From assembly GCA_903852325.1 (NCBI GenBank), contig CAINQO010000080.1:2732-66731 (forward strand): a stretch of 64,000 nucleotides of DNA, in the 5' to 3' direction. The position numbers and the translations under genes are program-made. The notes below the pieces were generated by a model that was not told where the DNA came from, did not search any database, and worked only from the letters and a program-made list of their open reading frames with translations. This document shows positions 42,395 to 64,000 of this stretch, piece by piece. Position 1 is the first letter of the stretch. Each line of letters starts with the position of its first letter. Source of the DNA: Candidatus Omnitrophota bacterium. Its GTDB lineage: Bacteria > Omnitrophota > Gorgyraeia > Gygaellales > Profunditerraquicolaceae.

Positions 42395-42415
42395 TCCGCC
42401 ATCTCCTTTTACAAA

Positions 42416-43900: not shown

Positions 43901-43977
43901 TTCCTCTCCTTAATGAGCAGACAACTTACGAACGCGAAAGCGTGAGTAAGTTGTAGGCCGCCAGGCCGTCTGCGAAT

Positions 43978-44036
43978 TAATTTCGCCGAATGCCTCAAAA
44001 TTCCAGAGAATTTTGAGGCAGCTGCTGAGGCGAAAC
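43978..44036. promoter_or_regulatory. nested hairpin in the ALDH upstream region (12-bp perfect inner stem GCCTCAAAATTC/GAATTTTGAGGC inside ATTTCGCC/GGCGAAA)
   Basis: The sequence was read directly. There is no U-tract on either strand, so it is not a canonical terminator. Confidence 0.35.
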
Positions 44037-44047
44037 TCACATAGAAC

Positions 44048-45961: not shown

Positions 45962-45983
45962 AGTTTTTATATTCCCAATTGTG

Positions 45984-46733
45984 TCACTTTCCTTCTAATT
46001 TTTTAACTAAATCCAGGGCAATTTTAATTAAATTGCCTTCCGCCATATAATACAGCGGATTCATAAAACCCATTTCACCGGTAATCACATTATCACTTAC
46101 CGCTAATATCGAGCCGGCTTTGATATTGTAGGTCTGGCAAATGGTCAGCATCGTGGAAGAGACCATATCCACGGCCAGGGCGCCTTCCTTACGTTTGCCT
46201 TCCACCAGTTCCCGGGTCTCCCGCAATAAAGCGTCCGTAGTCCAGGCCTTACCGCGGTGCACATTTAAACCCATATCTTTAGCAATCTGGAAGAGAAGAT
46301 CAGAAATCTTCTTGTCGCTGATCGTCTTAAAATCCTTATCCACATAATACGGGGTCACTCCGTCGCCGCGGATCACTTCATCGACGACAAATAAATCCCC
46401 CACCTTAATATTTTCATCCATTGCCCCGCAGGTGCCCACGCGGATAATGTTCTGGATCCCCGCGTTGCACATGACTTCGGTGGTGATCGAGGTGTCAGTG
46501 GAAAATCTCCCGCCGTTAATCCCGGTGACCTTAATCCCCTCAAAGGTGCCAGTGTACATGGTGTATTCCATAAAAGAAAAATTCTTGATCGGGTTTTCCA
46601 GCTTTTTCATCAAAACATCCAGCCGGTCCCGGGGGCCGGGCACGATCGCGTACTTACCTACATCCTGAGGCCTTAACTGCACCATCGCGGTTAAATCTTT
46701 TCCCGTTAAATGAACATCTTTCTGCATTTGCAT
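45984..46733 (-). CDS. PNP/UDP family-1 nucleoside phosphorylase (purine/MTA phosphorylase-like)
   Basis: RVGTCGAM phosphate-binding block and the C-terminal AVDMVSSTML block of the DeoD/Udp/MtnP fold. 249 aa. Confidence 0.6.
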   Translation of the reverse strand: MQMQKDVHLTGKDLTAMVQLRPQDVGKYAIVPGPRDRLDVLMKKLENPIKNFSFMEYTMYTGTFEGIKVTGINGGRFSTDTSITTEVMCNAGIQNIIRVGTCGAMDENIKVGDLFVVDEVIRGDGVTPYYVDKDFKTISDKKISDLLFQIAKDMGLNVHRGKAWTTDALLRETRELVEGKRKEGALAVDMVSSTMLTICQTYNIKAGSILAVSDNVITGEMGFMNPLYYMAEGNLIKIALDLVKKLEGK

Positions 46734-46750
46734 GTGAATTCTCCCTTAAG

Positions 46751-47080
46751 TTACGCCCGGTACATAATGACGTTTGCTTTTTCCAATGTGATCAACCCCT
46801 CTTTAACCATACTGTCTAACTGCGGCAGGAACTGATTGATCTTCTCTTCGCTGTCCACAATCTCAATGATGATCGGCAGGTCTTCAGAAAGCCGCAATAA
46901 ATTAGCGGTGTGCATATGGCTTTTGCAGCCAAACCCCATAAACCCTTTGATCGCGGTTGCCCCGGCTAACCCGGTTTTTTTGGCCAAAAGAATGATTTCC
47001 TCATAAAGCGGCTTGCCGTTCCATTTATCAGCCTCCCCGATAAAAATCCTTAAAAGCTTGCCGTCCGCGGGTATCTTCAT
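46751..47080 (-). CDS. DUF190 (PII-like fold) protein, the usual partner of CrcB
   Basis: 109 aa with a LLRIFIGEADKW...GATAIKGFMGFG pattern. Its start overlaps the crcB stop. Confidence 0.7.
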   Translation of the reverse strand: MKIPADGKLLRIFIGEADKWNGKPLYEEIILLAKKTGLAGATAIKGFMGFGCKSHMHTANLLRLSEDLPIIIEIVDSEEKINQFLPQLDSMVKEGLITLEKANVIMYRA

Positions 47081-47451
47081 ATTATTTCTCCTAATAAACC
47101 ACCAATCCTGAATAATATAAGGCCCAAAACCACACTCACAAAAACATTGCTGAACGCGCGCATCGCCTGGCCGTTTTTCAGCAGGTTATCCGACTCAAAG
47201 ATCAAGGTCGAGAATGTCGTGAACGCACCGCAAAACCCGATCATTAATAGAATTTTAGCGTCCGGCCCAAGAATAAACTTTTTATCCGCTAAAGTAGCTA
47301 AAAACCCCAGGATAAAACATCCGCTGACATTGACCACCAGGGTTCCGTAGGGAAAACTTGTGCCGGCCAACCGATAAACAAAACCCCCTAATAAATACCG
47401 GGCAATTGTGCCGATCGAACCTCCGATAATTAAATTTAATAGTTTTATCAT
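47077..47451 (-). CDS. crcB: fluoride channel CrcB/Fluc
   Basis: 124 aa with four TM helices and the IGGSIGTIARY...GTLVVNVSGCFILG signature. Confidence 0.85.
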   Translation of the reverse strand: MIKLLNLIIGGSIGTIARYLLGGFVYRLAGTSFPYGTLVVNVSGCFILGFLATLADKKFILGPDAKILLMIGFCGAFTTFSTLIFESDNLLKNGQAMRAFSNVFVSVVLGLILFRIGGLLGEII

Positions 47452-47846
47452 ACTTTTTTAGCTAATTGCTTTTTTTCGAGTTTCTTAATTTGATCCCAAT
47501 TCCTGACGATCTGGCGTGCTGAGCTTACTTTAACCTTCCCAAAAACATGCGGGTGACGGCGTTTCAATTTCTTCACTAACCCATCAATCACATCCTCCAC
47601 ATCAAATCTGCCTGTTTTACTGGCGATCTGCGCATGAAACATTACCTGTAACAGAATATCGCCCAGCTCCTCCTGCATATTCGCCAGGTCGTTTTGCTTA
47701 ACGGCAAAGATAAATTCATCTACTTCTTCCCGCAGGTACTTTAGCAGTGTCTTGTGCGTTTGCTGCTTATCCCAAAGACAGCCATTGGGACCGTGTAGCG
47801 TTTGGAATAATTCTTTTAGCTCAATAAACTTAGTAGGCTTACTCAT
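47448..47846 (-). CDS. mazG: MazG-type nucleoside-triphosphate pyrophosphohydrolase (single-domain)
   Basis: Typical MazG EExxE/D acidic helices (LREEVDEFIFA...ELGDILLQV), the RRHPHVFG block and a length of 132 aa. Confidence 0.7.
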   Translation of the reverse strand: MSKPTKFIELKELFQTLHGPNGCLWDKQQTHKTLLKYLREEVDEFIFAVKQNDLANMQEELGDILLQVMFHAQIASKTGRFDVEDVIDGLVKKLKRRHPHVFGKVKVSSARQIVRNWDQIKKLEKKQLAKKV

Positions 47847-47976
47847 TAAAACAGTAGACAGTGTATGTAACTATATGCAATAACTAATTTTTTGAAACAA
47901 ATACGAGTAGTTGCTCCGTGAATATTTGTTATGAAACAAGACTGCTTACAATAGGTTACATAAACTGTCTACCTTA

Positions 47977-48888
47977 CTAAAGAGCAAATAACTTTCCCGC
48001 ATTCCCACCCAGGATGTTCTGTTTATCTTCCTGGGATAAATCTAAATCGTTAACCGCTTTGATCCCCGCGGCCACATCCTGCTTTGCCGGCCAGTCGCTT
48101 CCCCAAAGGATGCGTTTTGGCCCCATCAAATCTAAACTTAGCAAAAAATTGGCTTTAGTGGTATCTCCGCTGGTATCGACATAAATATTCTTGAAGTAAT
48201 CCGAGGGCAGTCCCTGCAGATCCTTAACAAAATTCATTTTGCGCAGCATCTGATAAGTTGCGTCGAAACGCTGTTTAAGATAGCAGATCGCCCCGCCGAA
48301 ATGGGCAAAAACAAATTTAACTTTCGGGTAGGTGCGGAAAATATCCGACATTAACAGCCTGCCTGCCGAAATCGTCGTATCGAAAACATATTCGATCACC
48401 GGGGTAAGCAGCGGGTCTTTTACTCGCTCATAGCCGATCGGGTTAACGATCTGGGAGTGCACGAAAACCGGCAGGTTCTTGCCTTGCGCTTCCTCATAAA
48501 CCGGCAGAAACATCTTATCGTCCAGGTAAATCCCGTTATAACTGGAAGCCAGAGACACCGCCTTAAATCCCAGCTCATCCGTCGCCCGATTCAATTCCTC
48601 CAACATATCGATGGAATTATCTACCGGCAGGACCGCCGCGCCGATAAACCGGTCCGGATATTTCTTTAAAATTTGGCCGACATTATCATTATAAAGATGG
48701 GCGACCTGGCTGATGCTCCCTAATTTTAAATGCGCGTCTGAGGTCGGATAGCTTAAGACCGCCCGCTGGATGCCGCTGGCATCCATGATCTTAAGCTGGG
48801 CTTCGATATCCCCCCAGCCCTTATGGAAAAAATGAGCGTTGGAGATTATCTCCTCCGGTAGCCAGTGGCTATGCGCGTCGATCAACAT
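47977..48888 (-). CDS. amidohydrolase-2 (TIM-barrel metal-dependent hydrolase/decarboxylase) family protein
   Basis: N-terminal IDAHSHW metal-ligand motif and conserved H/D positions of the ACMSD/LigI-type family. 303 aa. Confidence 0.6.
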   Translation of the reverse strand: MLIDAHSHWLPEEIISNAHFFHKGWGDIEAQLKIMDASGIQRAVLSYPTSDAHLKLGSISQVAHLYNDNVGQILKKYPDRFIGAAVLPVDNSIDMLEELNRATDELGFKAVSLASSYNGIYLDDKMFLPVYEEAQGKNLPVFVHSQIVNPIGYERVKDPLLTPVIEYVFDTTISAGRLLMSDIFRTYPKVKFVFAHFGGAICYLKQRFDATYQMLRKMNFVKDLQGLPSDYFKNIYVDTSGDTTKANFLLSLDLMGPKRILWGSDWPAKQDVAAGIKAVNDLDLSQEDKQNILGGNAGKLFAL

Positions 48889-49302
48889 TTAGTGGTCGGT
48901 GCTCCGTAAAATGCGCTTGGTCATTTCCTTTTCATAAAGCGCCTTGATCTGCGCCAGGAACCGGCGGCCGAATTCTTTAGCGATCAATTTTTCTATGGCA
49001 TTAAGCTTTACATCCAGGAAAATAAACTCGGTGTTGGTTTTTTGCCCCTTATATTTTAACTCCAGGCAGGCTTTTTCCTTGGCGGCGATATACTCCTGGA
49101 AATTATTCACGTGCTTTTCCAGCTCCGCTTTTTCATGCGGCAGATAAGCGCCCATAAGCGTATTTTCGATCTCCTGCAAAAGATCCTTATCGATATCCGT
49201 CTGGGTAAATTTGCGCTCGAATTTATCAAAAGCTTCTTTGGTAGTCTTGTACAACCAGATAAAGTAACGCTTCTTTAAATTCTTGGTGTCCTGATTATCC
49301 AT
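48889..49302 (-). CDS. hypothetical cytoplasmic protein (137 aa, helical)
   Basis: The ORF abuts the flanking genes with no gap. No recognisable motif. Confidence 0.35.
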   Translation of the reverse strand: MDNQDTKNLKKRYFIWLYKTTKEAFDKFERKFTQTDIDKDLLQEIENTLMGAYLPHEKAELEKHVNNFQEYIAAKEKACLELKYKGQKTNTEFIFLDVKLNAIEKLIAKEFGRRFLAQIKALYEKEMTKRILRSTDH

Positions 49303-49329
49303 CGTCTCTCCGCCTTTCCTAAAACTGCC

Positions 49330-49935
49330 TTACTTCTTGATCAACTCCACCGTATCAAAATAAAGGGTGCCCTTGGAAACGGGAAGCGGCTCAAACTGAA
49401 AGCTCTTGACCGGGAAATCGATCACCCCGTTTTTATCCGCATCCTGCGGCTGCCAATCGTCGCGGGCGATAAATTTATCAAAGCTCACTACGACCTTTTT
49501 CCATCCGGCAGTATCATCCTCGGTAATAAAACGGAACAGCTCTCCGCCGCTATCCTTAACGTCAAAAGCGATTTTAGCCTTGGAGTTGGTCCCGTAAACA
49601 TAAAAAGATATCCCGCTGTAATCCGTCCACTTGATCTCGGAGGGCTTCACCGTCCAGGTAGCATTTTTAGCATCCAGCCCTGAACCGCGGGCAATATACA
49701 TATAACCGCCACTCACCGCGTCATAAGCCGCCTTTAAGGACTGCTTGCCGGTATTTTTGATATCGGTAGCCGCGGTCACCTGCAAGCTGGAACCGTTGCC
49801 GGAACCAAAATCCACCGTGCCTTCGGCGCCGCCGGAAACCGCCATCTCAAAATCATCGAGTAAAAAATTATCCGCAAAACAAATCCCGCTTACCGCTAAA
49901 ATTAAAACTGCCGCGAGTAATCCTATCTTTTTCAT
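49330..49935 (-). CDS. secreted CIA30/CBM11-like beta-sandwich protein
   Basis: Signal peptide and strong RBS (TTAAGGAGAATAAAG). DDFE...W...ISFYVYG...WKKVVVSFDKF pattern of CIA30/CBM-like domains. Confidence 0.4.
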   Translation of the reverse strand: MKKIGLLAAVLILAVSGICFADNFLLDDFEMAVSGGAEGTVDFGSGNGSSLQVTAATDIKNTGKQSLKAAYDAVSGGYMYIARGSGLDAKNATWTVKPSEIKWTDYSGISFYVYGTNSKAKIAFDVKDSGGELFRFITEDDTAGWKKVVVSFDKFIARDDWQPQDADKNGVIDFPVKSFQFEPLPVSKGTLYFDTVELIKK

Positions 49936-49979
49936 CTTTATTCTCCTTAACTGATATTTTGTTTTTCTACCTACTGTTA

Positions 49980-50016
49980 CTTGCCCGGGTGCCGCGCAGA
50001 GGCGCGCACCGGGTAA
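49980..50016. repeat. pair of GC-rich hairpins sharing ACCCGGG cores between the SDR gene and the secreted-protein gene
   Basis: The stretch cccgggtgccgcgcagaggcgcgcaccgggtaatcctatttacccgggtg folds into two adjacent imperfect stems. No U-tract. Confidence 0.35.
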
Positions 50017-50018
50017 TC

Positions 50019-50795
50019 CTATTTACCCGGGTGTTGCTGTTTAAACGGAATTACCGGCGCAGTCCAGGGGGTTTGCTGATTGATCACGGAAATCTCCAGA
50101 GGGCAGACATTGGCCGGCACGGTTAAAGCAAAACGCATCGCGTCTTCTATCGCCTCTGTCCCCATTAAACGGGAAGTATCGCTGGTAATGTCTTTAAGTT
50201 TACCGGTTAAATCCGTATCCGTCACTCCCGGCAGGATCGAAGTGACCTTGATCCCGTGGTCGCGCAGCTCCCAAAACAATCCTTTGGAAAAAGCGCGCAA
50301 CCCCACTTTCAGAGAGCTGTAAACAATAAAGTTTCTCGGGACCGGGTCGACCAGGGTGGAACCGGAAACGATATTAATGATTGCCCCGTATTTTTGCTCC
50401 ATCATATCATTGATCACCAGGCGGATCAGGCGCACATAACCCAGGTAATTGGTGTGCGCCAGCTTCTCAAAATCCTCGATCGGCTGCTGGTTAAAAGGAT
50501 ACTGGGAAGAAACTCCGGCACAGTTGATCAGAATATCCACCTTGCCGAACTTTGCCTTGGCTTTATTCACCAGGTTCTCTAAGTCTTCAAGCTTGGTCAC
50601 GTCGCAGGGAACCGGCAATACCTGGACTTTATATTTAGCGGCAATCTCCTCCGCTGTTTCTTTTAACGGGCCTTCACCGCGGGCGCCGACAACCAGGTTT
50701 ATTCCCAGTCCTGCCGCGGTGCAAGCCAAGGCTTTGCCGATACCGCGGCTGGCTCCGGTAACAATCGCTACACGTCCTTTTAAATCCGTGCTCAT
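50019..50795 (-). CDS. short-chain dehydrogenase/reductase, putative ketoreductase of the PKS-like cluster
   Basis: TGASRGIG Rossmann motif, catalytic YSSLK, and an AAGGAGGA RBS before the ATG at 50795 (the ORF-track start 50837 was trimmed). Confidence 0.8.
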   Translation of the reverse strand: MSTDLKGRVAIVTGASRGIGKALACTAAGLGINLVVGARGEGPLKETAEEIAAKYKVQVLPVPCDVTKLEDLENLVNKAKAKFGKVDILINCAGVSSQYPFNQQPIEDFEKLAHTNYLGYVRLIRLVINDMMEQKYGAIINIVSGSTLVDPVPRNFIVYSSLKVGLRAFSKGLFWELRDHGIKVTSILPGVTDTDLTGKLKDITSDTSRLMGTEAIEDAMRFALTVPANVCPLEISVINQQTPWTAPVIPFKQQHPGK

Positions 50796-50860
50796 TGAAT
50801 CCTCCTTGCGTAGAGACACACACCGGCGTAATTCCACTAAACGCCGGGTGTTGTAGAATA

Positions 50861-51295
50861 TTATTTAGCTGCTTCAATTACTTTCTTAAAGATCAGCAAG
50901 TTGTCCTTGGAATGCTTATTGATGAAACCCTCCACCTGCTCATCGGAAAACTTGGCTTTGCTGTCCATTTTAAAATGCTGGATCCAGGTTAATTCTATCC
51001 CGTCGGCCTTGGGAGTATAAAGCCAGATGATCTTCATGTATTCAAAGGGGAATTTCGGGTCGAAGCGTTCCGAATAAGTAAAATAATTCTCCTTGAATAA
51101 CAGCCTCCAGGAAATCCAGGATTTATCCTCATCGTCGGTAAGCCGGAAGGTGATTTTATTGTCTTCTTTTTTTACAATCTCGGCTTTCTTGTATTCAGCG
51201 CCGAATAACTCTGTCCAGCGCGGGATGTCATTGGAAATATTGAACACTAAATCGTACGGCGCGTTGATAATGATTGAATTACAGGTATGTCCCAA
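50861..51295 (-). CDS. SRPBCC-fold protein (polyketide aromatase/cyclase-dehydrase-like, polyketide_cyc2 type)
   Basis: IIINAPYDLVFNISNDIPRW start typical of SRPBCC cyclases. The start was reassigned to the TTG at 51295, preceded by a perfect AAGGAGG, which removes the 67-nt overlap with the upstream gene. Confidence 0.6.
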   Translation of the reverse strand: MGHTCNSIIINAPYDLVFNISNDIPRWTELFGAEYKKAEIVKKEDNKITFRLTDDEDKSWISWRLLFKENYFTYSERFDPKFPFEYMKIIWLYTPKADGIELTWIQHFKMDSKAKFSDEQVEGFINKHSKDNLLIFKKVIEAAK

Positions 51296-51309
51296 TTTAA
51301 CCTCCTTTA

Positions 51310-52110
51310 TTAATCCAACAAAGCCACTACCCTCGCCCAGGCAGCACCGGTATTTTTGATGCGAATGGGAAAACATTGGATCTTAAATCCGTAATCCGGA
51401 AGCTTTTCCAGGTTAGCCAGCCTCTCGATATGGATAAATTCTTTTTTGCGTCCAAAAAAATGCGCCGGGTAAAAAGTCTTCGGGTCCCTGGTTTTGAGGA
51501 ATTCGGCGAGCATAAAACGGTAGGGCCGGTCGATCCCCATCGTGTCCACGCCGAAGATTTTTATCCCCTGCTCCAAAAGATATTCTATCGCCGAAGGATC
51601 TACTCCGGGGTAATCCGAGAAATATTTCGGTTTGCCGTACAGCTTATCGGCGCCGGTATGCAGTAAAACAATATCTAAAGGTTTAAGCCGGTAATTTATT
51701 TTGGTTAAAGCTTCCCGGATATCCTGCTCTTTAATTACTTCATTGGGTTTTTTATGCCGCATATCCAACTTAACCCCCGGTTGGAAACAATATTCCAGGG
51801 GGATTTCGTCGGCGGTTTTAGAAGGGCGGTTCTCCGATTGGGAACCGTAATGAAAGGAATAATCCAGGTGCGTGCCGACATGCACCGGGGCGTGCACAAT
51901 TTCCAGGGAGAGGAATTCTTCGTCGGGCAGCTCTTCCTTTTTAATGATCCGCTTTCCCAGCGCGTATTTGATCTTACCGGAAAGGGTCTTGCCCATGATC
52001 ACCCGGTTAAACTTTTCCACCCCGGCTTTATGGGTTACCCTTTCGATCGCCACTTTATGCACTTCAAAGGCGGTCTCATCAATGGGTAAGCTCAAATCGA
52101 TTATGGTCAC
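51310..52110 (-). CDS. cyclase-family protein (PF04199; kynurenine-formamidase-like metal hydrolase / putative polyketide cyclase)
   Basis: HVGTHLDYSFHYG matches the HxGTHxDxPxH signature of the family. Confidence 0.7.
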   Translation of the reverse strand: MTIIDLSLPIDETAFEVHKVAIERVTHKAGVEKFNRVIMGKTLSGKIKYALGKRIIKKEELPDEEFLSLEIVHAPVHVGTHLDYSFHYGSQSENRPSKTADEIPLEYCFQPGVKLDMRHKKPNEVIKEQDIREALTKINYRLKPLDIVLLHTGADKLYGKPKYFSDYPGVDPSAIEYLLEQGIKIFGVDTMGIDRPYRFMLAEFLKTRDPKTFYPAHFFGRKKEFIHIERLANLEKLPDYGFKIQCFPIRIKNTGAAWARVVALLD

Positions 52111-52163
52111 CCGGCCTTCTCCTTATTTATCCAGCCTAGCTTCTTCTTAGGTTACAGGAAAAC

Positions 52164-52400
52164 TTACTTAGTTAATTTTTGGTCGATATTGCTGACAATA
52201 TCGTTGATCGTGCAGTTTTTGGTGATCTCTTTGGGGCTAAGCTTGACCCCGAAAGATTTTTCCAAAGCGATAACCGACTCCACCATTTCCGTAGAATCCA
52301 CCCCGATGCTGTCGATTAAAGTAGAGGCGTCTTTTAATTCCTCGATTTTTACTTTTAATAAATTGGCCAGCACTTCTTTTACTTTGTTTTTAGTGTCCAT
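52164..52400 (-). CDS. acyl carrier protein
   Basis: 78-aa acidic four-helix protein with a GVDSTE phosphopantetheine-attachment motif (GxDS). Confidence 0.7.
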   Translation of the reverse strand: MDTKNKVKEVLANLLKVKIEELKDASTLIDSIGVDSTEMVESVIALEKSFGVKLSPKEITKNCTINDIVSNIDQKLTK

Positions 52401-52443
52401 TAATCCTCCCTACCTACTCACTGCTATCTACCCGCTACTGTTG

Positions 52444-53904
52444 TTATATTTGCACTTCCCCCTTGGTCGCGGCGGCTTCCCATTTGCCTACCCCGGCCAT
52501 GACATCCTGGAAACAGAGCTTGGCCAAAGGATCGAAGTTGCTTTCCATGATCCGGTTGATCCTTCCGGGCTTGGAGAAAAACTCGCGCATGCACCAGGAA
52601 CCCAACCTGCCCAGGTCCTCGGTAGTCAGGTGGTCCGTGGGGATTACCGGATGCAGAAAATCCCACTGGCTGAAATCCACCTTTTTCGGGTCGATCCAGT
52701 GTTTCTTTAAAGCGATCCTCCACATCGGAGAATTCGGGGCGGGGGTCACGTAGCCGACCCACAACACATCCGGATCCACCTGGTCGGTAAATTCAAAACG
52801 CTGCTTAACGATCTCTTCGGTATCATAGTCAAACCCCATCATGATGTCAGCGACGATGGCGATGTCATTTCTCCTAAACATGGCGATGGTCTGCTTGATC
52901 TGGTCGATGGTAATACCTTTAGCGATCCTCTTTAACTCCGACTGCGTGGTGACTTCGATACCGAAAACCCCCATAAATAAACCCTGCTCCTTCATCAACG
53001 GCAGGATGGATTCGCAATTGACCCAGTCGATTGCCCGGCCCAAAGAAACCCATTTGATCGGGTTATTCGAAGCTTTTTTCAACTCGCAAAACTTTTGCAC
53101 TCTTTTGGGATCGACATTAAAATTATCATCCTGGATGACAACCACCTTAACCCCGTATTTGCGGTGCAGCAGGTTAAGTTCTTCCATTACCCTTTCCGGG
53201 GATTTAGCGCGCCATTTCAAAAAATCCGAAGGAGAGCGCGGGTCAAACTGGTCCCACTCATAACAAAAAGTACAGGCGGAAGGGCAGCCGCGGGAAGTAA
53301 CCATATCCACGAACGGCTTCCAATAAGTATGCCCGACATATTTATCCATCGGGAAAAGATCGTAGGCCGGAAGAGGAAGCTTGTCCAAATCTTCCATCAA
53401 CGGCTTATGCGGCCCCATGACGATCTGCCCGTCGATGCGGCTGGTGACCCCGCCCACATCTTTCAGTGGCGTATTTTTATCGATCGCCTCGATCAGGTCT
53501 CCGAATGATTCCTCTTCCCCCATGACCACAAAATCAACCGCGGGAATTTCTTCCAGGGTCGGCACCGGCATCGCCGAATACCATAAACCGCCCAGGATGA
53601 TCTTTGTCCTCGGCAGCGCTTTTTTGATCCCGATCGCCGCGTCCTTAAAATGCCGCAGCACCCCGTATCCGCCGTAACCGTGGAGCTGTTCACCCATCAC
53701 GACAATATCTGGGTTTTTCTCTTTGACCTGCTCGATCAACTGCTCCATAGGAATCTGGTCGGCTTTACCGTCGATAACCGCGACATCCTCATACCCTCTT
53801 TCCCGCACATAAGCCGCCCAATGGGCGTACAGCTGGTTTGGAGAACGGTGGATTCCATGGGTCGCCCAGGCACCTACTTTCGGCATTACAAATAAGATTT
53901 TCAT
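52444..53904 (-). CDS. cobalamin-binding (class B) radical SAM enzyme
   Basis: N-terminal B12-binding-like Rossmann region (MKILFVMPKVG...) and an SRGCPSACTFC CxxxCxxC cluster. 486 aa. Confidence 0.75.
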   Translation of the reverse strand: MKILFVMPKVGAWATHGIHRSPNQLYAHWAAYVRERGYEDVAVIDGKADQIPMEQLIEQVKEKNPDIVVMGEQLHGYGGYGVLRHFKDAAIGIKKALPRTKIILGGLWYSAMPVPTLEEIPAVDFVVMGEEESFGDLIEAIDKNTPLKDVGGVTSRIDGQIVMGPHKPLMEDLDKLPLPAYDLFPMDKYVGHTYWKPFVDMVTSRGCPSACTFCYEWDQFDPRSPSDFLKWRAKSPERVMEELNLLHRKYGVKVVVIQDDNFNVDPKRVQKFCELKKASNNPIKWVSLGRAIDWVNCESILPLMKEQGLFMGVFGIEVTTQSELKRIAKGITIDQIKQTIAMFRRNDIAIVADIMMGFDYDTEEIVKQRFEFTDQVDPDVLWVGYVTPAPNSPMWRIALKKHWIDPKKVDFSQWDFLHPVIPTDHLTTEDLGRLGSWCMREFFSKPGRINRIMESNFDPLAKLCFQDVMAGVGKWEAAATKGEVQI

Positions 53905-53917
53905 TTAATTCCTCCCT

Positions 53918-55147
53918 TTATACTTTCTCAACCACCAGCACTGAATTAATTCCTCCTCTACCGCGGGAAATAATCAAGGATTTGTTTACCTTATATTCTT
54001 TTGCTTCTTTAGCCACAAAATTCAGCCCGCTTGAAACCGGCTGGTCTAAATTCAATGTCGGCGGGACCAGGCCATACTCCATCACCTTTAAGGCAATGAT
54101 CATATCAACGGCTCCGGATGCCCCTAATAAATTACCGAACATGGATTTAGGGCAGCTGACGGGTATTTTCTTTAGGTTGTTTCCAAAAACCGATTCCAGC
54201 GCTTTGATCTCGGAATTATCCCAAAGCTCGACCGCTAATCCGTCCAAACTGATATAACCGATCTCTTCAGGATTGGCGGCGGCGTCATTCAGCGCCATCC
54301 TGATCGCCCGCGCCAGCTCTTTTCCGTCGGCAGCGCAGTTGATCCGGTCCACCCCGTCGCAGGAAGTGCCGTAACCGCTGATCAGCCCCAAGATCTTGGC
54401 GTTGCGGGATTGCACCCGCGCAATGTTCTCCATCACCACGATCCCGGCTCCCTCCCCGATAACAAAACCGCTGCGTTTAGAGTCAAAAGGCCGGTAAGCC
54501 CCCTGCGGATCCTGATTATTCTTCGAGAGGGTTCCATAAGTATTGCAGCACAACAGCGCGTAAGGAGTAACCGGGGCTTCCATTCCTCCGCCTAAGATCA
54601 TATTTAATTTATTTTTGGCTAAGACTTTCCTGGCATAACCTAAAGCCATCAGGGAGCTGGCCCGGTCACTGACCACGGTCTTACTAAATCCTTTAATTCC
54701 GTAATAAATAGAGACCTGCCCCTGGGGAGCCGCCGGAAACCAGGCGCTGGCCATGTAAGGAGAAACCCCCTCCCGGCCTTCCAGATAAAGGTCCCTTAAT
54801 TCGGTTTCGGCGTAAAGCCAGCCGCCGATGGCGTTTCCTAAAAATATTCCCACCAGATTGGGGTCTTCGTTCTTAATATCGATCCCGGCATCCTGCAACG
54901 CCGACTCGGCAGCGACTAAAGCCATGTGCGAAAAGGCGTCGATCTTTTTAAGCAGGCGCTCGGAGATATGGCTGTATTTTTCCAGGTCATCGATCTGCCC
55001 GGCGATATGCGAAGGGTAAAGGCTGGCGTCAAAACGGGTGATTTCTTTAATAAAGGAGCGGCCGCTTTTAATATTCGCCCAGAATTGCCGTTTTCCTATT
55101 CCTGAAGGGGTGACTACCCCGATCCCGGTTATAGCTATTTTTTCCAC
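53918..55147 (-). CDS. ketosynthase-fold protein lacking all three catalytic residues (chain-length-factor / KS-beta-like)
   Basis: KS fold throughout. The active-site Cys is replaced (VVSDRASSL instead of TACSS). The first His is Tyr (GYGTS) and the second His is Asn (KSMFGNLLGASGA). Confidence 0.7.
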   Translation of the reverse strand: MEKIAITGIGVVTPSGIGKRQFWANIKSGRSFIKEITRFDASLYPSHIAGQIDDLEKYSHISERLLKKIDAFSHMALVAAESALQDAGIDIKNEDPNLVGIFLGNAIGGWLYAETELRDLYLEGREGVSPYMASAWFPAAPQGQVSIYYGIKGFSKTVVSDRASSLMALGYARKVLAKNKLNMILGGGMEAPVTPYALLCCNTYGTLSKNNQDPQGAYRPFDSKRSGFVIGEGAGIVVMENIARVQSRNAKILGLISGYGTSCDGVDRINCAADGKELARAIRMALNDAAANPEEIGYISLDGLAVELWDNSEIKALESVFGNNLKKIPVSCPKSMFGNLLGASGAVDMIIALKVMEYGLVPPTLNLDQPVSSGLNFVAKEAKEYKVNKSLIISRGRGGINSVLVVEKV

Positions 55148-55217
55148 CCAGCTCTTCCTTTCTATACCTTATATCTATCTATTATACCCGCCCCCCAAAG
55201 GAAGGGCTGGGTCCAGC

Positions 55218-56480
55218 TTATCCACCGTACCTTTTGAAAACGATCGAAGAATGTATCCCGGAAAAACCGCTTGAGGTTTTCATGATCATATTCACTTTTT
55301 TGGCGATCGCCTGGTTCGGAATATAATACAAATCGCACTGCGGGTCTTTTTCCTCCTGGTTTATCGTCGGAGGCAGGATGTTTTTCTCAAAAATCATCGA
55401 AACAATGGTCATCTCCACGGCATTGGCCGCCGCCAGGGGATGGCCGATCATCGATTTCAGGGAGCTGATCGGCAGTTTGTAAGCGTAATCCCCGAAAATC
55501 GCCTTGTAAGCATTGGTTTCGAAAATATCGTTCATCCGGGTGCTGGATCCGTGGGCATTGATATAATCGATCTCCGTGGGCTTGACCCCGGAATCTTTTA
55601 GGGCCAAAGCAATGCAGGTTTCCATTGCCCGTCCGTCCGAAGGAAGGTCGGTCATATGAAAAGCGTTGCAGCTGGTGCCGAAACCTAAAATTTCACAATA
55701 GATCGGAGCGTTGCGTTTTAAGGCGTGGCTTAATTCTTCCAGGACTAAAATCCCCGCCCCTTCTCCGAGCACAAACCCGTCCCGCTTATTATCGAAAGGC
55801 CGGGAAGCTTTCTGCGGTTCATCATTATGTACGGAAAGGACATTGACCACATCAAAAGCCCCGAAGGTGATCGGGGTAAGCGGAGCTTCTGCCGCGCCGC
55901 AGATCATCACATCCTGCTCCCCGTCCTGGATACTCTCCAGGCCGAACCCCAATGAATCCGTGCCGGCGGTGCAGCCGGTAGAAATAGTATTGCAGCTTCC
56001 TTTTAAACCGAAACGCGCGCTTAACTCTATCGAGGGGGTATTAAACATCGCCGCATCATATAAATCCGGGCGGACCATCGCCGGATTGATCGGTTTTTTC
56101 CCGTCGTCGGTGACCAAAGCGAACTCTTCTTCCATGTATTTGGTGCCACAGATGGCATTAGCCAGGCAAACCCCGATCCGCTCGGGATCCTCTTTAGAGA
56201 AATCCAATTTGCTGTCTTCAACCGCCATTTTTCCGGCGGCCACCCCGAATTGCACGTAACGGTCCATGCGCATCGCCTCTTCATGGCTCAATCCCAGTTT
56301 AAAAGGATCGAAATCCCTGACCTCGGCGGCGATTTTAGTATTAAAAACCGAGACGTCAAAGCCGTCCACCCGGCGTATACCAGATTTTCCTCCGGAAAAA
56401 CCCTCCCAGGCGTTTTTCTTTCCGATGCCGTTGGGGGAGATCACCCCGATCCCCGTAACTACCACGCGTCTTTTTTCCAT
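55218..56480 (-). CDS. beta-ketoacyl synthase with an intact Cys-His-His triad (KS-alpha / FabF-like)
   Basis: TGCTAGTDS active-site Cys. The two catalytic His are in AHGSST and SMIGHPLAAA. 420 aa. Confidence 0.85.
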   Translation of the reverse strand: MEKRRVVVTGIGVISPNGIGKKNAWEGFSGGKSGIRRVDGFDVSVFNTKIAAEVRDFDPFKLGLSHEEAMRMDRYVQFGVAAGKMAVEDSKLDFSKEDPERIGVCLANAICGTKYMEEEFALVTDDGKKPINPAMVRPDLYDAAMFNTPSIELSARFGLKGSCNTISTGCTAGTDSLGFGLESIQDGEQDVMICGAAEAPLTPITFGAFDVVNVLSVHNDEPQKASRPFDNKRDGFVLGEGAGILVLEELSHALKRNAPIYCEILGFGTSCNAFHMTDLPSDGRAMETCIALALKDSGVKPTEIDYINAHGSSTRMNDIFETNAYKAIFGDYAYKLPISSLKSMIGHPLAAANAVEMTIVSMIFEKNILPPTINQEEKDPQCDLYYIPNQAIAKKVNMIMKTSSGFSGIHSSIVFKRYGG

Positions 56481-56496
56481 ATTTATTTAAACTCAA

Positions 56497-56622
56497 AATC
56501 CTAAATTCTAAATCCTAAACAAATCCAAAATCCAAAACTCAAATTTTCTAAACCGCCGTTTTGGGTTTTAAATTTAGAGTTTTGGGTTTGTTTAGAGTTT
56601 CGTGTTTAGAGTTTAGGGTTTT
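56497..56622. repeat. long AT-rich imperfect inverted repeat (~50-nt arms built from TCCTAAA/TCCAAAA-like units) between the tandem-domain gene and KS-alpha
   Basis: Left arm: ctaaattctaaatcctaaacaaatccaaaatccaaaactcaaattt. Right arm: aaatttagagttttgggtttgtttagagtttcgtgtttagagtttagg. The central loop contains ccgccg. Confidence 0.5.
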
Positions 56623-57218
56623 GTTTTATCCTCCTCTACTCTTTTGACTTTAAAAATAATATTGCCACCATCAGGGCAGGTCACCGTATCGATGGAATTC
56701 GGATCAGGCATGAAGAAAAACTTTGCCCCGAAATTCAGGGCGAACAGCGCCGGGAAAGCGGTGTGAAAAGCCGCCCCGCAGAATCCCGGGATGCATTTTA
56801 ACCCCTGGGTTTCCCATTTGTCCCCGACTTTATAGCCAAAAGCGCATTTGCCTTTGGCCTGGACCACCTCTAAAACCATTTTTTTAGGGTTAGGCCCCTT
56901 ATGATTGGGGTCGCGCGGCAATGCTTCCACTTTGCCTTGCTTATCCAGGATTTCGGCTTTAAATTCCAGCTTTCCTCCGTCCGGGCAGGTCACCAAAAGC
57001 GAACGCTGGTTGTCCCGGAACCCGAATTTTGCGCCGAAGCTTAAGGCGTAGGCAACCGGAAAAAGCGCGTGCGCCAGGCCGAGGCAAAAATGCTTGGGCC
57101 CGTGGGTGAAGTCTTCTAAAATGATCTCGTCCCCGATCTTGTAACCGTGGTAACATTCACCCATTACCTGGGTCACCGTAAGTTTTAGCCGCGGGAAGGG
57201 GGTTTTTACTTCATCCAT
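56613..57218 (-). CDS. protein made of two tandem ~95-aa Cys/His-containing domains (TIGR04076-like)
   Basis: The blocks G(E/K)C..GYK.GD, F(C/H)..A(F/L)..(AL)F.L.FGAKF and VTCPDGG..F recur in both halves. Confidence 0.4.
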   Translation of the reverse strand: MDEVKTPFPRLKLTVTQVMGECYHGYKIGDEIILEDFTHGPKHFCLGLAHALFPVAYALSFGAKFGFRDNQRSLLVTCPDGGKLEFKAEILDKQGKVEALPRDPNHKGPNPKKMVLEVVQAKGKCAFGYKVGDKWETQGLKCIPGFCGAAFHTAFPALFALNFGAKFFFMPDPNSIDTVTCPDGGNIIFKVKRVEEDKTKP

Positions 57219-57220
57219 TT

Positions 57221-58225
57221 TTACACCAGCTCCTTAGTCCTCTGGATCAATTCTTCTTTACTAAAAAACCGGTGCCCGGTTTCTACCTGGTGCACCATTT
57301 CCACCAAAACTTTATTTAAAGGCGCTTGCAGTTTGTTCTCCTCTGCCAGCCGCACGAACTCGCCGTTTAAGTAATCTATCTCGGTAACTTTACCGCGCAT
57401 AATGCTCTGCAGGATCGAGCCGTACAAGGGATCCTTGCTTAAATTATGCATCATCCCAGAGAAAATTTCCGCCGCGTGCTCGCTGGGCATGGTCGTAAAC
57501 TTGGTCAGGTTTTCGACCGGAAATCCGGGAAGGGAGACCAGATCAATACCGAGCTTATCGAAAATTTCAAAAGCCTCTTTCCAGATCGCGATGCTGATCC
57601 GGGCAATCGCAATATCCGCGAACACTTCCTGCATGCTCTTGCCAATGATCGCCGGCAAACAGTTGTTAGCGTTCACGAAGATCTTTAAATACTTCATCCC
57701 TTTAAGCTCCTGGGTGACCTGCGTGGAAAAAGCTTTATCCAGGAGCAGTCCGACGGAAAACATCTCCGGGGTGGGATGAGGGTTGAAAATGCTGCCCAAT
57801 ATCCAGTCCCCTTCGAAATTATGCACCACTTTGCCGCTTTCCAGGTTGGTGGCGCCGAACATCACAATACTGGAAATAATTTTTTCCGCCGGTAAATATT
57901 TAGCCGCCAGCTTGTCCGCCTGCACCCCGTTTTGCGTGGTCAGCAGCAGGGAGTTCTGGATCAGGTGCGCGCAATCGGAAAGCGCCCCCTCGATATCCTG
58001 GGTTTTCACGGTTAAAATTACCAGCTCCGGAAGATAGTTCAGGGTCTCGGAAATGCTTACCCGCACCAGATGGTTTCCGCGGACCCCGGAAATAGAGATC
58101 CCATGGTCATGGATGGCGTTCACGGTCGAGCCGCGGCCGACCAAAGTGACCTCTTCCCCTTTTTCCTTAAGATAACCGGCGACCAGGCAACCGATCGCTC
58201 CGCTTCCGATAACCGCGATGCGCAT
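57221..58225 (-). CDS. ketopantoate reductase (ApbA/PanE) family NAD(P)H oxidoreductase
   Basis: N-terminal MRIAVIGSGAIGCLVAGYL Rossmann motif and a C-terminal ApbA_C-like helical domain. 334 aa. Confidence 0.7.
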   Translation of the reverse strand: MRIAVIGSGAIGCLVAGYLKEKGEEVTLVGRGSTVNAIHDHGISISGVRGNHLVRVSISETLNYLPELVILTVKTQDIEGALSDCAHLIQNSLLLTTQNGVQADKLAAKYLPAEKIISSIVMFGATNLESGKVVHNFEGDWILGSIFNPHPTPEMFSVGLLLDKAFSTQVTQELKGMKYLKIFVNANNCLPAIIGKSMQEVFADIAIARISIAIWKEAFEIFDKLGIDLVSLPGFPVENLTKFTTMPSEHAAEIFSGMMHNLSKDPLYGSILQSIMRGKVTEIDYLNGEFVRLAEENKLQAPLNKVLVEMVHQVETGHRFFSKEELIQRTKELV

Positions 58226-58494
58226 TATTGTTTACCGTTTTTAGGATAACCGTATTTTTTGTAATCAAACCCGTTTTGCTCTAAGAGGCGCAGCATCATG
58301 CTGTAAAACGGGGAAGGGACATCCGAAAAAAAAGCCGCCACGACATCCTGTTCTCCCACCTCAGTGGCGCTGCGTTTGGCGGCCAGCTCGGCGGCCTTTT
58401 GCCGGACCACCGATTCAGTGATATGGCGGTGGAATACGGGAATTTTGGAGATCAATACCTTGAATTTATTTTCGGTTCCGGTTTCCCAGTTCAT
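58225..58494 (-). CDS. small PCP_red-like domain protein (resembles the C-terminal domain of protochlorophyllide reductase subunit B)
   Basis: W..KFKVLISKIPVFHRHITESVVRQKAAELAAKRSATEV..QDVVAAFF resembles the PF08369 pattern (KIPFFVR...E..AR..G...VT). Confidence 0.35.
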   Translation of the reverse strand: MNWETGTENKFKVLISKIPVFHRHITESVVRQKAAELAAKRSATEVGEQDVVAAFFSDVPSPFYSMMLRLLEQNGFDYKKYGYPKNGKQ

Positions 58495-58515
58495 TTTCGC
58501 AATTGCCTCTTTTAA

Positions 58516-58546
58516 TATAGTAAAATTTTACTATAATTTTAGTCAA
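58516..58546 (-). promoter_or_regulatory. sigma70 promoter (TTGACT-18-TACTAT) for the biosynthetic operon, overlapped by a perfect 20-bp palindrome (TATAGTAAAATTTTACTATA, 58516-58535) that is a candidate PadR operator
   Basis: -35 at 58546-58541 and -10 at 58522-58517 on the minus strand. An AAGAGG RBS lies upstream of the ATG at 58494. The palindrome covers the -10 and spacer. Confidence 0.55.
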
Positions 58547-58596
58547 GATAAACTCCTTTGTCAAGCAAATTATCCTGGAATTTGCCTATGGAAAAT

Positions 58597-59112
58597 TCAG
58601 ATTTTTTTAAGCAGGGAGCTCAAGAATGCGGACTCGGCGCGCAAAAGGCAAAGGTTATGCTCCATGATCCGCTGCAGGGGCAGCGAATTTTTTAATTCCC
58701 CGGTGGTAAACATCCGCTTGATCCCGGAAGATATCTTCGCCAGGATCTCCAGCCGTTTTTCCAGCCTGCGGCGGGCAAGCGCCGGCTGCAGAAAGCCCAG
58801 AAAATACAGGCTTAAATCGAGAGTAAACTGCGGGCGCTTAAAATCCAGGAGGTTCTTGTTCAGCAATACCTCAAACCGCTCCTTGCCTTTGGCGGTTAAA
58901 CAATAAACCAGCCGCGGCGGCCTTTTGCCTTTTTTCTCGACGCGCTTGGCAAGCAAACCTTTTTTTTCTAAGATTCTTAAGGGATAATATATCGATTTGA
59001 GCTGGACACCGGCGAACAGGGAAAGGATCTCCCGGACTTTAACTTTGATCTCGTAACCGTGTTTGGGGCTTTGACGCAAGAGGCCTAGAAGGATCAGCTC
59101 CTGATCGATCAT
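58597..59112 (-). CDS. PadR-family transcriptional regulator
   Basis: N-terminal winged-HTH [24 protein letters not shown]...[12 protein letters not shown] signature. Its start overlaps the accA stop by 4 nt. Confidence 0.75.
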
Positions 59113-60056
59113 GCGGTAACACCCATTGCCCTGAATTTCTTATACCTTGATTCCAACAGTTCTTTTTTGTCCAGGGACTCCAGTTCTTTAAGCATCCTTA
59201 AAACCGTTTCTTTGACGCTGGAAGCGGTTTTCTTCACGTCCCGGTGCGCCCCGCCCAAAGGTTCCGAAACCACTTCGTCGATCAGCCCCATCTTCAGCAG
59301 GTCCGGAGCGGTAAGTTTTAAAACCTCGGCGGCCTTGGGGGCCTTGGCCCCGTCCTTCCAGAGGATCGCCGCGCATCCCTCCGGGGAGATCACCGAATAA
59401 TATGAATTTTCTAAAACCGCCAGCCGGTCCGCCACCCCTACCCCCAGCGCTCCGCCGGAGCCGCCTTCGCCGATAACCACCGCGACGATCGGCACGGTAA
59501 AACTCATCATTTCCCTTAAATTAAGGGCGATCGCATGGGACTGCCCGCGCTCCTCCGCACCGATGCCCGGGTATGCCCCGGGGGTATCGATAAAAACCAC
59601 GACCGGGATATCAAACTCTTCCGCCATTTGCATTAAGCGCAAAGCTTTACGGTAACCCTCCGGGTGCGCGCAGCCGAAATTACGTTTCAAATTTTCTTTG
59701 GTATCCCGGCCTTTTTGGTGGCCGATCACCATCACCTTCCTTTTATCCAGCTTGGCCAGCCCGCAGATCATCGCTTTATCGTCGCTAAATAACCGGTCCC
59801 CGTGCAGTTCCACAAAATCCGTCATGATCATGCTGATATAATCCAGGGTATACGGGCGCAGCGGATGGCGGGCAATCTGCACTCTTTGCCAGGGGGAAAG
59901 GTTGACGTAGGTATCCTTCTTCAGGGATTCCAATTTATCGTCGAGCTTTTTGACCTCGGAAGAGAGATCGATCTTTTTCTCCGCCATAAAGGTCTTGAGC
60001 TCTTGAATTTTTTTCTCTAGCTCGACGATCGGTTTTTCAAAATCCAGTCCGGCCAT
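59109..60056 (-). CDS. accA: acetyl-CoA carboxylase carboxyltransferase alpha subunit
   Basis: 315 aa with the [13 protein letters not shown] oxyanion region and an ACCase CT-alpha fold. Confidence 0.9.
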
Positions 60057-63753: not shown

Positions 63754-64000
63754 TTATCCGCAGAGGATCAGTTTGATTATATTTATAGCGTTTTTTACGT
63801 TCAGCTTTAAACGATTATAACTTTTAATGCGCCTTATCTGCTTAAGAATTTTTAACGGCCTGAAATAAAACTCACGGTATGCTTTTTTTTGTAAGCGCAG
63901 TAAATCCTTTTCTGACAGCCCCTCCAAATGATGCACTGGCCGGGAATGAATTCCATAATCATCAAAGTTACGGCTGCTTAACAATTGGTGATTAACGATG
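63754..64000 (-). CDS. 3' end of a gene continuing beyond the window, possibly a class-B radical SAM protein
   Basis: The C-terminal AYREFYFRPLKILKQIRRIKS resembles the conserved tail of B12-binding radical SAM enzymes. The frame is open to the window edge. Confidence 0.3.
   Translation of the reverse strand, partial: IVNHQLLSSRNFDDYGIHSRPVHHLEGLSEKDLLRLQKKAYREFYFRPLKILKQIRRIKSYNRLKLNVKNAINIIKLILCG

Follow-up and report, generated by a model that had tools for sequence, protein, structure and literature searches.

Does a run of genes in an ultra-small anaerobe encode a machinery for aromatic polyketides that works without oxygen? We have addressed this question in a stretch of 64,000 nt, hereafter “the window”, from a Candidatus Omnitrophota bacterium (assembly GCA_903852325.1, contig CAINQO010000080.1, positions 2,732–66,731 of the forward strand). 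Thirteen tightly packed genes (gaps or overlaps of 0–130 nt) lie on its minus strand, as do all genes described below for 40874–60056; together with padR and accA they form a run spanning 47977–60056. The reading that we favour is of a PadR-controlled operon for an aromatic type II polyketide synthase (PKS) that branches early and works without oxygen. That the locus is an aromatic type II PKS pathway we consider highly probable; the full mechanistic scheme proposed below, with export, radical S-adenosylmethionine (SAM) tailoring and salvage, is only somewhat favoured. An original prediction, made from the letters alone, had described the thirteen genes as a type II PKS-like set with unusual accessory enzymes. 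Its gene list and nearly all of its domain calls hold in Pfam and NCBIfam profile searches, although its start at 49330 omits the last two genes that it listed (48889–49302 and 47977–48888), the run in fact ending at 47977.

The ketosynthase pair and its companions

Domains were called with Pfam and NCBIfam profiles, bit scores being compared with family cutoffs, and homologues of known structure were sought with phmmer against the PDB. The ketosynthase (KS) KS-alpha (55218–56480; PF00109 and PF02801) keeps Cys, His, Lys and His at the aligned catalytic positions. Its gene is directly followed by that of KS-beta, a partner resembling a chain-length factor (CLF; 53918–55147; PF00109 and PF02801), where Arg, Asp and Asn stand at the places of Cys, His and His in a KS and are invariant among homologues. 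Thus, the predicted contrast between one intact Cys-His-His triad and one lost in all three residues is correct. The best PDB matches of KS-alpha are ActKS-alpha (376.6 bits) and AntD (372.8 bits), with all FabFs at 357.6 bits or less, ladderane amxFabF2 at 275 and amxFabFmut (9s5h) at 205.5 bits. A highly reducing or polyene type II PKS was also considered and set aside, the ishigamide KS scoring only 243 bits against KS-alpha. Similarly, identity with a housekeeping FabF was rejected, KS-alpha falling below the cutoff of the fabF equivalog model TIGR03150 (462 vs 493.75 bits).

In a neighbour-joining (NJ) tree, the cluster KS-alphas, the KS-alpha of Clostridium beijerinckii, AntD and ActKS-alpha formed one clade with the FabFs outside in 100% of 200 bootstraps, the FabF references being those of Bacillus subtilis and Listeria only; the Act, AntD and two FabF sequences were rebuilt from printed alignments. 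The original prediction had named branching inside the housekeeping FabF/FabB clades, together with a fabG/fabZ context, as one outcome that would speak against a type II PKS-like core. KS-alpha stands outside the two FabFs, no fabZ or fabI context is present, the cyclase of the PF04199 family scores above its threshold and the SRPBCC protein is TcmN-like, so that none of the outcomes named as refuting, a known aryl-polyene or fatty-acid-modification locus included, was seen and this part of the prediction is borne out.

Relatives of KS-beta were taken from an exhaustive search of 1.8 billion representative proteins, of which only single-domain matches were considered, the list being dominated by giant multi-KS synthases whose domain scores are summed. 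A degenerate triad was found in 21 of the 25 nearest single-domain relatives, and all 21 fall into one clade with 100% bootstrap support; the remaining four keep Cys-His-Lys-His and are among the weakest matches. Most of the nearest CLF-like relatives, those of C. beijerinckii and Ktedonobacter among them, have Arg at the Cys position, and the Arg-type clade (P0121, P0132 and P0145 among its members) extends over Omnitrophota, Thermodesulfobacteriota, Clostridium and Ktedonobacter. Among named relatives, identity to KS-beta is 57% in metagenome-assembled genomes (MAGs) labelled Deltaproteobacteria, 42% in C. beijerinckii and C. puniceum and 40% in Ktedonobacter. These named relatives lie within type II PKS gene sets that have cyclases of the PF04199 family, the SRPBCC family or both, the Clostridium and Ktedonobacter sets having both; two more relatives likewise lie in cyclase-bearing clusters.

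By sequence, KS-alpha and KS-beta would both be early-branching members of their families that are still FabF-like, because a CLF-family profile favours FabFs and KS-alpha passes a FabF subfamily model. This agrees with a bulk catalogue of KS-CLF pairs, in which many non-actinobacterial CLFs were classed as fatty-acid synthase (FAS) proteins by NaPDoS2 and in which Omnitrophica is one of 14 phyla with such pairs (PMC10132072). The same catalogue makes the statement that this architecture is rare outside Actinobacteria too strong. Calling the pathway undescribed was likewise overstated, given that catalogue and the “ladderane” calls already reported for the phylum (PMC9902471).

The genes that travel with the pair point to aromatic chemistry. 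The acyl carrier protein (ACP; 52164–52400; PF00550, 38.1 bits) carries its serine for phosphopantetheine attachment in a GVDS motif. Of the two cyclases, whose assignments the original prediction had made dependent on profile thresholds, the PF04199 OxyN-type metal-dependent enzyme (51310–52110) passes clearly (110.7 vs 23.1 bits), while the SRPBCC protein reaches the Pfam Polyketide_cyc2 cutoff exactly (27.4). The former has the HxGTHxD metal motif (HVGTHLDYSFH), and its counterpart in the C. beijerinckii cluster shares 46% identity with it. The latter, a TcmN-type aromatase/cyclase of 144 aa, has seven significant PDB matches, all of them WhiE ORFVI, ZhuI or TcmN (82–89.5 bits; E 2.6e-24 to 6e-22). 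Gene calls of homologues, in the case of the SRPBCC gene that of the identical locus L001, shortened its open reading frame (ORF) to 50861–51295 and that of the SDR oxidoreductase to 50019–50795 (258 aa; PF00106, 172.5 bits). The SDR enzyme is best matched in the PDB by generic FabG and gluconate dehydrogenase. At the end of the run, an amidohydrolase-2 resembling LigW and gamma-resorcylate decarboxylase (47977–48888; PF04909, 119.5 bits) finds its best PDB matches in 5-carboxyvanillate decarboxylase (104.5 bits), gamma-resorcylate decarboxylase and ACMSD, and a homologue of it is also found in the C. beijerinckii cluster. No fabH, fabD, fabG, fabZ or fabI gene was found around the KS pair.

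Alongside this PKS core lie the accessory proteins that had been singled out as unusual, and they are indeed there: a B12-binding radical SAM enzyme (52444–53904; PF02310, 40.8 bits, and PF04055, 71.5 bits), a protein with tandem TIGR04076 Cys/His domains (56613–57218; two domains, 94.8 vs 33 bits) and a small protein of 89 aa (58225–58494). The last had been called PCP_red-like; the gene is present, but the call is a weak one, PCP_red (19.5 vs 32.5) and DUF2621 (24.8 vs 27.7) both remaining below threshold. It is followed by a PanE/ApbA-family NAD(P)H oxidoreductase (57221–58225; TIGR00745, 173 vs 141.35 bits). No solved relative of the tandem TIGR04076 protein was found in the PDB search, and a comparison of folds gave only an ambiguous match. 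In C. beijerinckii, a 175-aa protein encoded directly after the CLF (L010, 11260–11787) joins an N-terminal TIGR04076-like domain, 45% identical over 71 aa, to a C-terminal ACP domain. This fusion physically ties TIGR04076 to a carrier protein in a cultured organism. It is worth adding that a conserved protein of about 170 aa is encoded between the radical SAM and 89-aa genes in L066 (at about 11829) and in 23 other places; its faint Polyketide_cyc match (E 0.037) hints that it may be a second SRPBCC cyclase. The run is completed by a secreted CBM_11-like protein (49330–49935; PF03425, 67 bits; N-terminal signal-like sequence) and by a hypothetical protein of 137 aa (48889–49302), which has orthologues in L004, L006, L065 and L067 and matched no family in the Pfam and NCBIfam searches.

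Distribution, gene order and regulation

An alignment of the radical SAM enzyme served to scan one genome per GTDB species, and the number of related places in these species-representative genomes is at least 554. The phylum Omnitrophota has about 700 species in the same GTDB release (2026 preprint), from which it follows that the cluster is widespread across the phylum. About 71 of 80 retrieved places carry cluster genes and 57 carry the KS genes; most of those lacking the latter are contigs cut inside the cluster, and some nine hold true paralogues that have no gene of the cluster in their vicinity. The counts out of 57 below refer to the places holding KS genes. KS-beta is 82–92% identical to members of more than 100 protein clusters, and all those named by source come from Candidatus Omnitrophota or Omnitrophica MAGs. 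Identical copies of the locus occur on contigs of up to 612 kb. Between the window and the relative L006, cluster proteins are 82–88% identical, as compared with 82% for AccA, 69% for YifB and 68% for YkuD; the cluster proteins thus match AccA in conservation.

Among the hosts are Ca. Velamenicoccus archaeovorus LiM, whose genome is complete, Ca. Aceula, MAGs that bear the label Planctomycetales, and MAGs of Thermodesulfobacteriota and Syntrophaceae. Many of the “Planctomycetales” MAGs carry the same cluster as Omnitrophota, and their labels may be placeholders. Among the 57 places, the PanE-like reductase is present in 56, the 89-aa protein in 52, a transporter of the MFS family in 34, the TIGR04076 protein in 20 and the CBM_11-like protein in 5. 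In divergent Omnitrophota contigs the gene order is identical to that of the window, with the addition of the MFS gene between the SRPBCC and SDR genes; it is missing from that junction in the window (50796–50860; compare L006, 14384–15514). In L004 and L008, RND or MMPL pump genes stand beside the cluster instead of MFS. Some relatives, all of them distant, have phytoene-desaturase-like amine oxidases. The commonest order, as in Velamenicoccus, starts with padR and runs through ligase, phosphorylase, isomerase, aldolase, aldehyde dehydrogenase, radical SAM and 89-aa genes; it then continues with ApbA, in some cases TIGR04076, KS-alpha, KS-beta, ACP, cyclase, SRPBCC, MFS, SDR and amidohydrolase. 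Beyond the bulk CLF catalogue and counts of antiSMASH “ladderane” calls, we found no paper describing this cluster in Omnitrophota, and it goes unmentioned in the papers on Omnitrophota biology that we examined.

Directly upstream of the operon, padR (58597–59112; PF03551, 52.8 bits vs cutoff 27) and accA, encoding the acetyl-CoA carboxylase carboxyltransferase alpha subunit (59109–60056; PF03255, 504 bits), overlap by ATGA as predicted. The promoter placed near 58.5 kb corresponds to a TTGACA-17-TAAAAT match on the minus strand (58564–58536), which agrees with the sigma-70 consensus at 11 of 12 positions and is a consensus match only. Directly downstream of this promoter-like site lies a perfect palindrome of 20 bp (58516–58535; TATAGTAAAA / TTTTACTATA), with TATAGTAAAATTTTACTATA as the putative PadR target sequence. 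The 14-bp core of the palindrome, AGTAAAATTTTACT, is present in 25 related places, a single time in each, and a single time without mismatch in the window; wherever coordinates were compared, it lies between padR and the first gene of the operon. Judging from this placement, the palindrome is likely the PadR operator. The corresponding sites in relatives lie at 6706–6727 in L006, 6807–6837 in L004 and 2782–2795 in L033. In 22 of the 57 places padR is upstream of the operon, and accA adjoins the cluster in 5. Hence padR is a conserved member of the cluster and accA, noted in the original prediction as the subunit supplying malonyl-CoA, an incidental neighbour.

Oxygen-independent tailoring and the linked module

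The radical SAM enzyme carries the CxxxCxxC motif. Its best-scoring curated family is BchE, the anaerobic Mg-protoporphyrin IX monomethyl ester oxidative cyclase (TIGR02026; 208 bits over positions 2–416 of 497), followed by HpnJ at 148 bits. Membership in BchE was rejected at an equivalog cutoff of 481 bits, as was membership in the ladderane model TIGR04072 (70.9 vs 360). With BchE it has in common the pairing of B12 with radical SAM and its occurrence in anaerobes; unlike BchE it has no chlorophyll gene context, no bch genes being found in the window, and its substrate must differ. Each cluster has one copy of the gene, at three different positions across lineages. Some genomes have extra BchE-like paralogues away from PKS genes: L031, L035 and L079 in one MAG, L039 and L084 in another, and L036, L038, L041, L043, L046 and L057.

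It is the distribution of oxidative enzymes that suggests what this protein is for. Aerobic relatives (Ktedonobacter, L095) have FAD and luciferase-type oxygenases, SnoaL and O-methyltransferases, whereas the anaerobic lineages have the radical SAM enzyme; in MAGs of Thermodesulfobacteriota and Syntrophaceae, and in a few Omnitrophota, genes for a tungsten-type aldehyde:ferredoxin oxidoreductase (AFOR) come in addition. Because of this exchange, the radical SAM enzyme would seem to supply oxygen-independent tailoring, by methylation or by a BchE-like oxidation or ring closure. The C-methylation that had been proposed for it is accordingly one option only for a BchE-like enzyme. The AFOR genes lie inside the clusters (L008, 4851–6824 and 14177–16156; L012, 1222–3093); besides the Thermodesulfobacteriota and Syntrophaceae MAGs, their hosts are the Omnitrophota-labelled L037 and L052 and the unassigned contig L012. 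In other Omnitrophota clusters, a NAD-type aldehyde dehydrogenase takes the place of AFOR.

This dehydrogenase (42416–43900; PF00171, 560 bits; linked in 50 of 57 places) is part of a module of five genes at 40874–46733. The others are a PNP_UDP_1 nucleoside phosphorylase (45984–46733; PF01048, 113.7 bits; 42 of 57), an MtnA-like sugar-1-phosphate isomerase of the IF-2B family (45047–45961; TIGR00524, 202 vs 185.85; 45 of 57), a class II aldolase that ends in an SCP2 domain (44048–45046; PF00596, 123.5 bits, and PF02036, 25.5 bits; 48 of 57) and an AMP-binding acyl-CoA/ACP ligase (40874–42394; PF00501 and PF13193; 35 of 57). The phosphorylase and aldolase pass their Pfam models and stay below the cutoffs of all NCBIfam equivalogs. 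In the commonest order the module sits between padR with its operator and the radical SAM/PKS genes, the ligase being the first gene after the operator in the Velamenicoccus-type arrangement; in the window, L067, L078 and L091 it lies downstream of the cluster. Phosphorylase, isomerase and aldolase genes also follow the cluster in a Thermodesulfobacteriota MAG, where the aldolase homologue has the same SCP2 fusion. The module is absent from two relatives without the radical SAM gene, these being only two cases.

The known dihydroxyacetone phosphate (DHAP) shunt converts 5'-deoxyadenosine into DHAP and acetaldehyde by nucleoside cleavage, an MtnA-like isomerase and a class II aldolase. The module has phosphorylase, isomerase and aldolase families in the same order, followed by a dehydrogenase that could take acetaldehyde. 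It differs in that its phosphorylase resembles uridine phosphorylase/DeoD more than MtnP, its aldolase bears the SCP2 domain as an addition, it includes an acyl-CoA ligase, and in many genomes it is placed between padR with its operator and the PKS genes. From these likenesses we infer that the module may salvage 5'-deoxyadenosine, the by-product of the radical SAM enzyme, in the manner of a DHAP shunt extended to acetyl-CoA. Perhaps it supplies a starter acid instead, a reading made relevant by the Arg-type CLF, which lacks the Gln used for self-priming.

Known relatives, rival explanations and neighbouring genes

The succession KS-CLF-ACP-TcmN-OxyN is the published “ancestral” type II PKS architecture, and ClrB has been placed in the ancestral C20 clade in the dendrubin paper (PMC7693217). 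C. beijerinckii and C. puniceum are clostrubin producers, and from the species names the C. beijerinckii locus that we retrieved would be clr. Identity to the window proteins is 45% for KS-alpha, 42% for the CLF, 46% for the PF04199 cyclase, 38% for the SRPBCC protein and 35% for amidohydrolase-2. The two loci also share the KS-CLF-cyclase-SRPBCC order, an Arg-type CLF and an anaerobic host, and a TIGR04076-like domain, there fused to ACP. In contrast, the Clostridium locus lacks the B12 radical SAM enzyme, the PanE-like reductase, the 89-aa protein, PadR and the nucleoside-to-acyl-CoA module, and has instead a KSIII, two phosphopantetheinyl transferases, CMD, DUF362/DUF169 proteins, hydrolases and an ABC exporter. 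The ant (AQ-256, Photorhabdus) and den (dendrubin) clusters show the same architecture in non-actinobacteria (PMC7693217). AntD is not only the second-best PDB match of KS-alpha (372.8 bits) but also falls with it in a 98–100% bootstrap clade; AntE was not among the best 60 PDB matches of the CLF. Both clusters differ from ours by a duplicated (didomain) TcmN and by having no radical SAM enzyme, and their products are known.

How could such an operon work? KS-alpha, KS-beta and ACP would condense malonyl units iteratively into a poly-beta-ketone, malonyl transferase and phosphopantetheinyl transferase being borrowed from elsewhere in the genome. The SRPBCC and PF04199 cyclases would then fold and aromatise the chain to a phenol of two to four rings, from which the amidohydrolase would take off the terminal carboxylate, and the SDR and PanE-like reductases could adjust carbonyl groups. 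The radical SAM enzyme may carry out a C-H functionalisation free of O2, in the form of a methylation or of a water-derived oxidation or ring closure like that of BchE, in place of the flavin and cofactor-free oxygenases of aerobic relatives. The product would be exported, an MFS gene being present in most relatives' clusters and lost in the window. PadR would repress the operon at the conserved palindrome adjoining the promoter-like site. Finally, the module could convert 5'-deoxyadenosine to DHAP and acetate or acetyl-CoA, or else provide the starter acid.

Several observations weigh against this reading. The tree is a NJ tree with two FabFs, and ActCLF and other characterised CLFs were left out of it. 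KS-alpha passes NF005589, a subfamily model for “beta-ketoacyl-ACP synthase II” (452.7 vs 387), and the CLF-family profile ranks FabFs (445 bits) above ActCLF (382). Canonical actinobacterial CLFs carry Gln at the position of the active-site Cys and use it in decarboxylative priming; KS-beta has Arg there instead. The SDR enzyme, predicted as a ketoreductase, is not ActKR-like, ActKR being absent from its best 60 PDB matches. Moreover, the cluster has no genes for malonyl transferase, phosphopantetheinyl transferase or thioesterase. In the module, the phosphorylase is nearer to uridine phosphorylase and DeoD than to MtnP, with uridine phosphorylase best, and the lipid-binding SCP2 domain is unusual for a sugar-phosphate aldolase. 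A near-universal presence with conservation at a housekeeping level is unusual for a secondary-metabolite cluster. Furthermore, the aromatic nature of the product is read from the genes and chain length cannot be read from sequence, while the radical SAM chemistry, salvage by the module and the roles of the TIGR04076, 89-aa and PanE-like proteins are all inferred.

The unusual conservation invites the thought of a genuine type II PKS that makes a primary metabolite, namely a polyketide-derived aromatic head group or a redox quinone/quinol electron carrier, in the membrane or outside the cell, with a BchE-like radical SAM enzyme that installs oxygen from water. We consider this unlikely. BchE is after all the best-scoring family of the enzyme, the decarboxylase is of the hydroxy-aromatic-acid type, and the cluster is maintained phylum-wide at housekeeping level. 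In fact, more than half of Omnitrophia and Aquiviventia genomes have a 4-hydroxybenzoate polyprenyltransferase but no chorismate lyase (Seymour et al., PMC10066038), which implies another source of the head group. Yet neither the window nor the retrieved neighbourhoods contain a prenyltransferase, UbiD/X or UbiE-like gene. The MFS gene of most clusters and the RND/MMPL genes near some suggest export, and an inducible control of the PadR type fits a conditional rather than a constitutive function. In a more far-reaching version, to which as a whole we give little credence, the type II PKS would be core metabolism in Omnitrophota and some Thermodesulfobacteriota: the operon would make a polyketide-derived quinone or polyphenol as an essential redox carrier or as a head group for prenylation, a BchE-like enzyme would add its oxygen atoms or methyl groups free of O2, and 5'-deoxyadenosine would be recycled within the PadR regulon, by way of the DHAP-shunt-like module, to acetate or acetyl-CoA for priming an Arg-type CLF that cannot prime itself.

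Another reading is a specialised pathway for fatty acids or lipids, like that of the ladderane clusters, where a KS, a dead KS, an ACP and a B12 radical SAM enzyme remodel an acyl chain; it would lead one to expect the antiSMASH label “ladderane” or “fatty acid”. MAGs of Omnitrophota and Desulfobacterota have yielded calls of “ladderane” biosynthetic gene clusters (BGCs), and their expression has been reported (PMC9902471); clusters of the window kind are plausibly among those so labelled in Omnitrophota. The anammox Cluster I (amxACP, amxFabZ, amxFabF2, amxFabFmut, PDH and B12 radical SAM) has the same four-part core, comes likewise from an anaerobic PVC-group bacterium, and its FabF homologues form a KS/CLF-like heterodimer (10.64898/2026.05.19.726425); the KS proteins of the window are FabF-like by profile, and amine oxidases resembling phytoene desaturase occur in some relatives. 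Still, we find this explanation very improbable. TIGR04072 does not fit the radical SAM enzyme (70.9 vs 360), and the KS proteins are closer to Act and Ant than to amxFabF (for KS-alpha, 376.6 bits with ActKS against 275 with amxFabF2 and 205.5 with amxFabFmut). Neither a FabZ-like dehydratase nor an enoyl reductase nor a phytoene-desaturase homologue was found in the window cluster, whereas TcmN-type and OxyN-type cyclases and an aromatic-acid decarboxylase are conserved in it. Hardly credible, finally, is a housekeeping FAS made of the KS pair and ACP with the other genes as unrelated neighbours. The NF005589 match, the adjacent accA and the very high conservation would agree with it. However, KS-alpha fails the fabF equivalog (462 vs 493.75) and clusters with type II PKS KS-alphas, its partner is catalytically dead, and fabH, fabD, fabG, fabZ and fabI are missing from the context. 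The same accessory genes stay with the KS pair in rearranged clusters and in different phyla, and accA is adjacent in only 5 of the 57 places.

If the aromatic type II PKS reading is right, what would it mean? The common view of type II PKSs is that of machinery for secondary metabolites, sporadic in occurrence and mainly of Actinobacteria. Here, one such gene set would be constrained as housekeeping genes are throughout an uncultured phylum of anaerobes that are ultra-small and in part predatory, and it is present in the sole enrichment-cultured member, Ca. Velamenicoccus archaeovorus. This could offer a handle on the role of aromatic polyketides in anaerobic nanobacteria, be it in redox reactions, in protection from oxygen or in attacking hosts. 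Together with the TIGR04076 protein and the PanE-like reductase, the BchE-like radical SAM enzyme may form an oxygen-free toolbox for tailoring aromatic polyketides, and the early-branching Arg-type CLFs bear on the evolution of KS/CLF from FabF. Moreover, this aromatic pathway may be what lies behind calls of “ladderane” or “fatty acid” BGCs in metagenomes of Omnitrophota and Desulfobacterota. The interest of the locus lies in the conservation of the cluster, its O2-free gene set, the Arg-type CLF clade and the co-regulated module. Absent from the original prediction were the conservation of the cluster throughout the phylum, the Arg at the Cys position of the CLF, the conserved putative operator and the linked module at 40874–46733.

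Elsewhere in the window, a second B12-binding radical SAM gene has its C-terminus at 63754–64000 on the minus strand and runs off the window end; on a 612-kb contig it encodes more than 466 aa, and the product is no more than distantly related to the enzyme of the cluster. Another radical SAM gene lies beside that of a ThiI/NFACT-R_2 protein (4349–6330), and an adenosine-specific kinase of the PF04008 family is encoded at 11429–11914. These radical SAM/ThiI and kinase genes of the window have no evident tie to the cluster. When unmatched ORFs were clustered, most proved to be antisense shadow ORFs, and one lipoprotein-like family was found among the conserved neighbours. The envelope genes that the original prediction cited as neighbours of the cluster, Lnt, LptE, an LpxL-family acyltransferase and SecA, are likewise encoded in the window.

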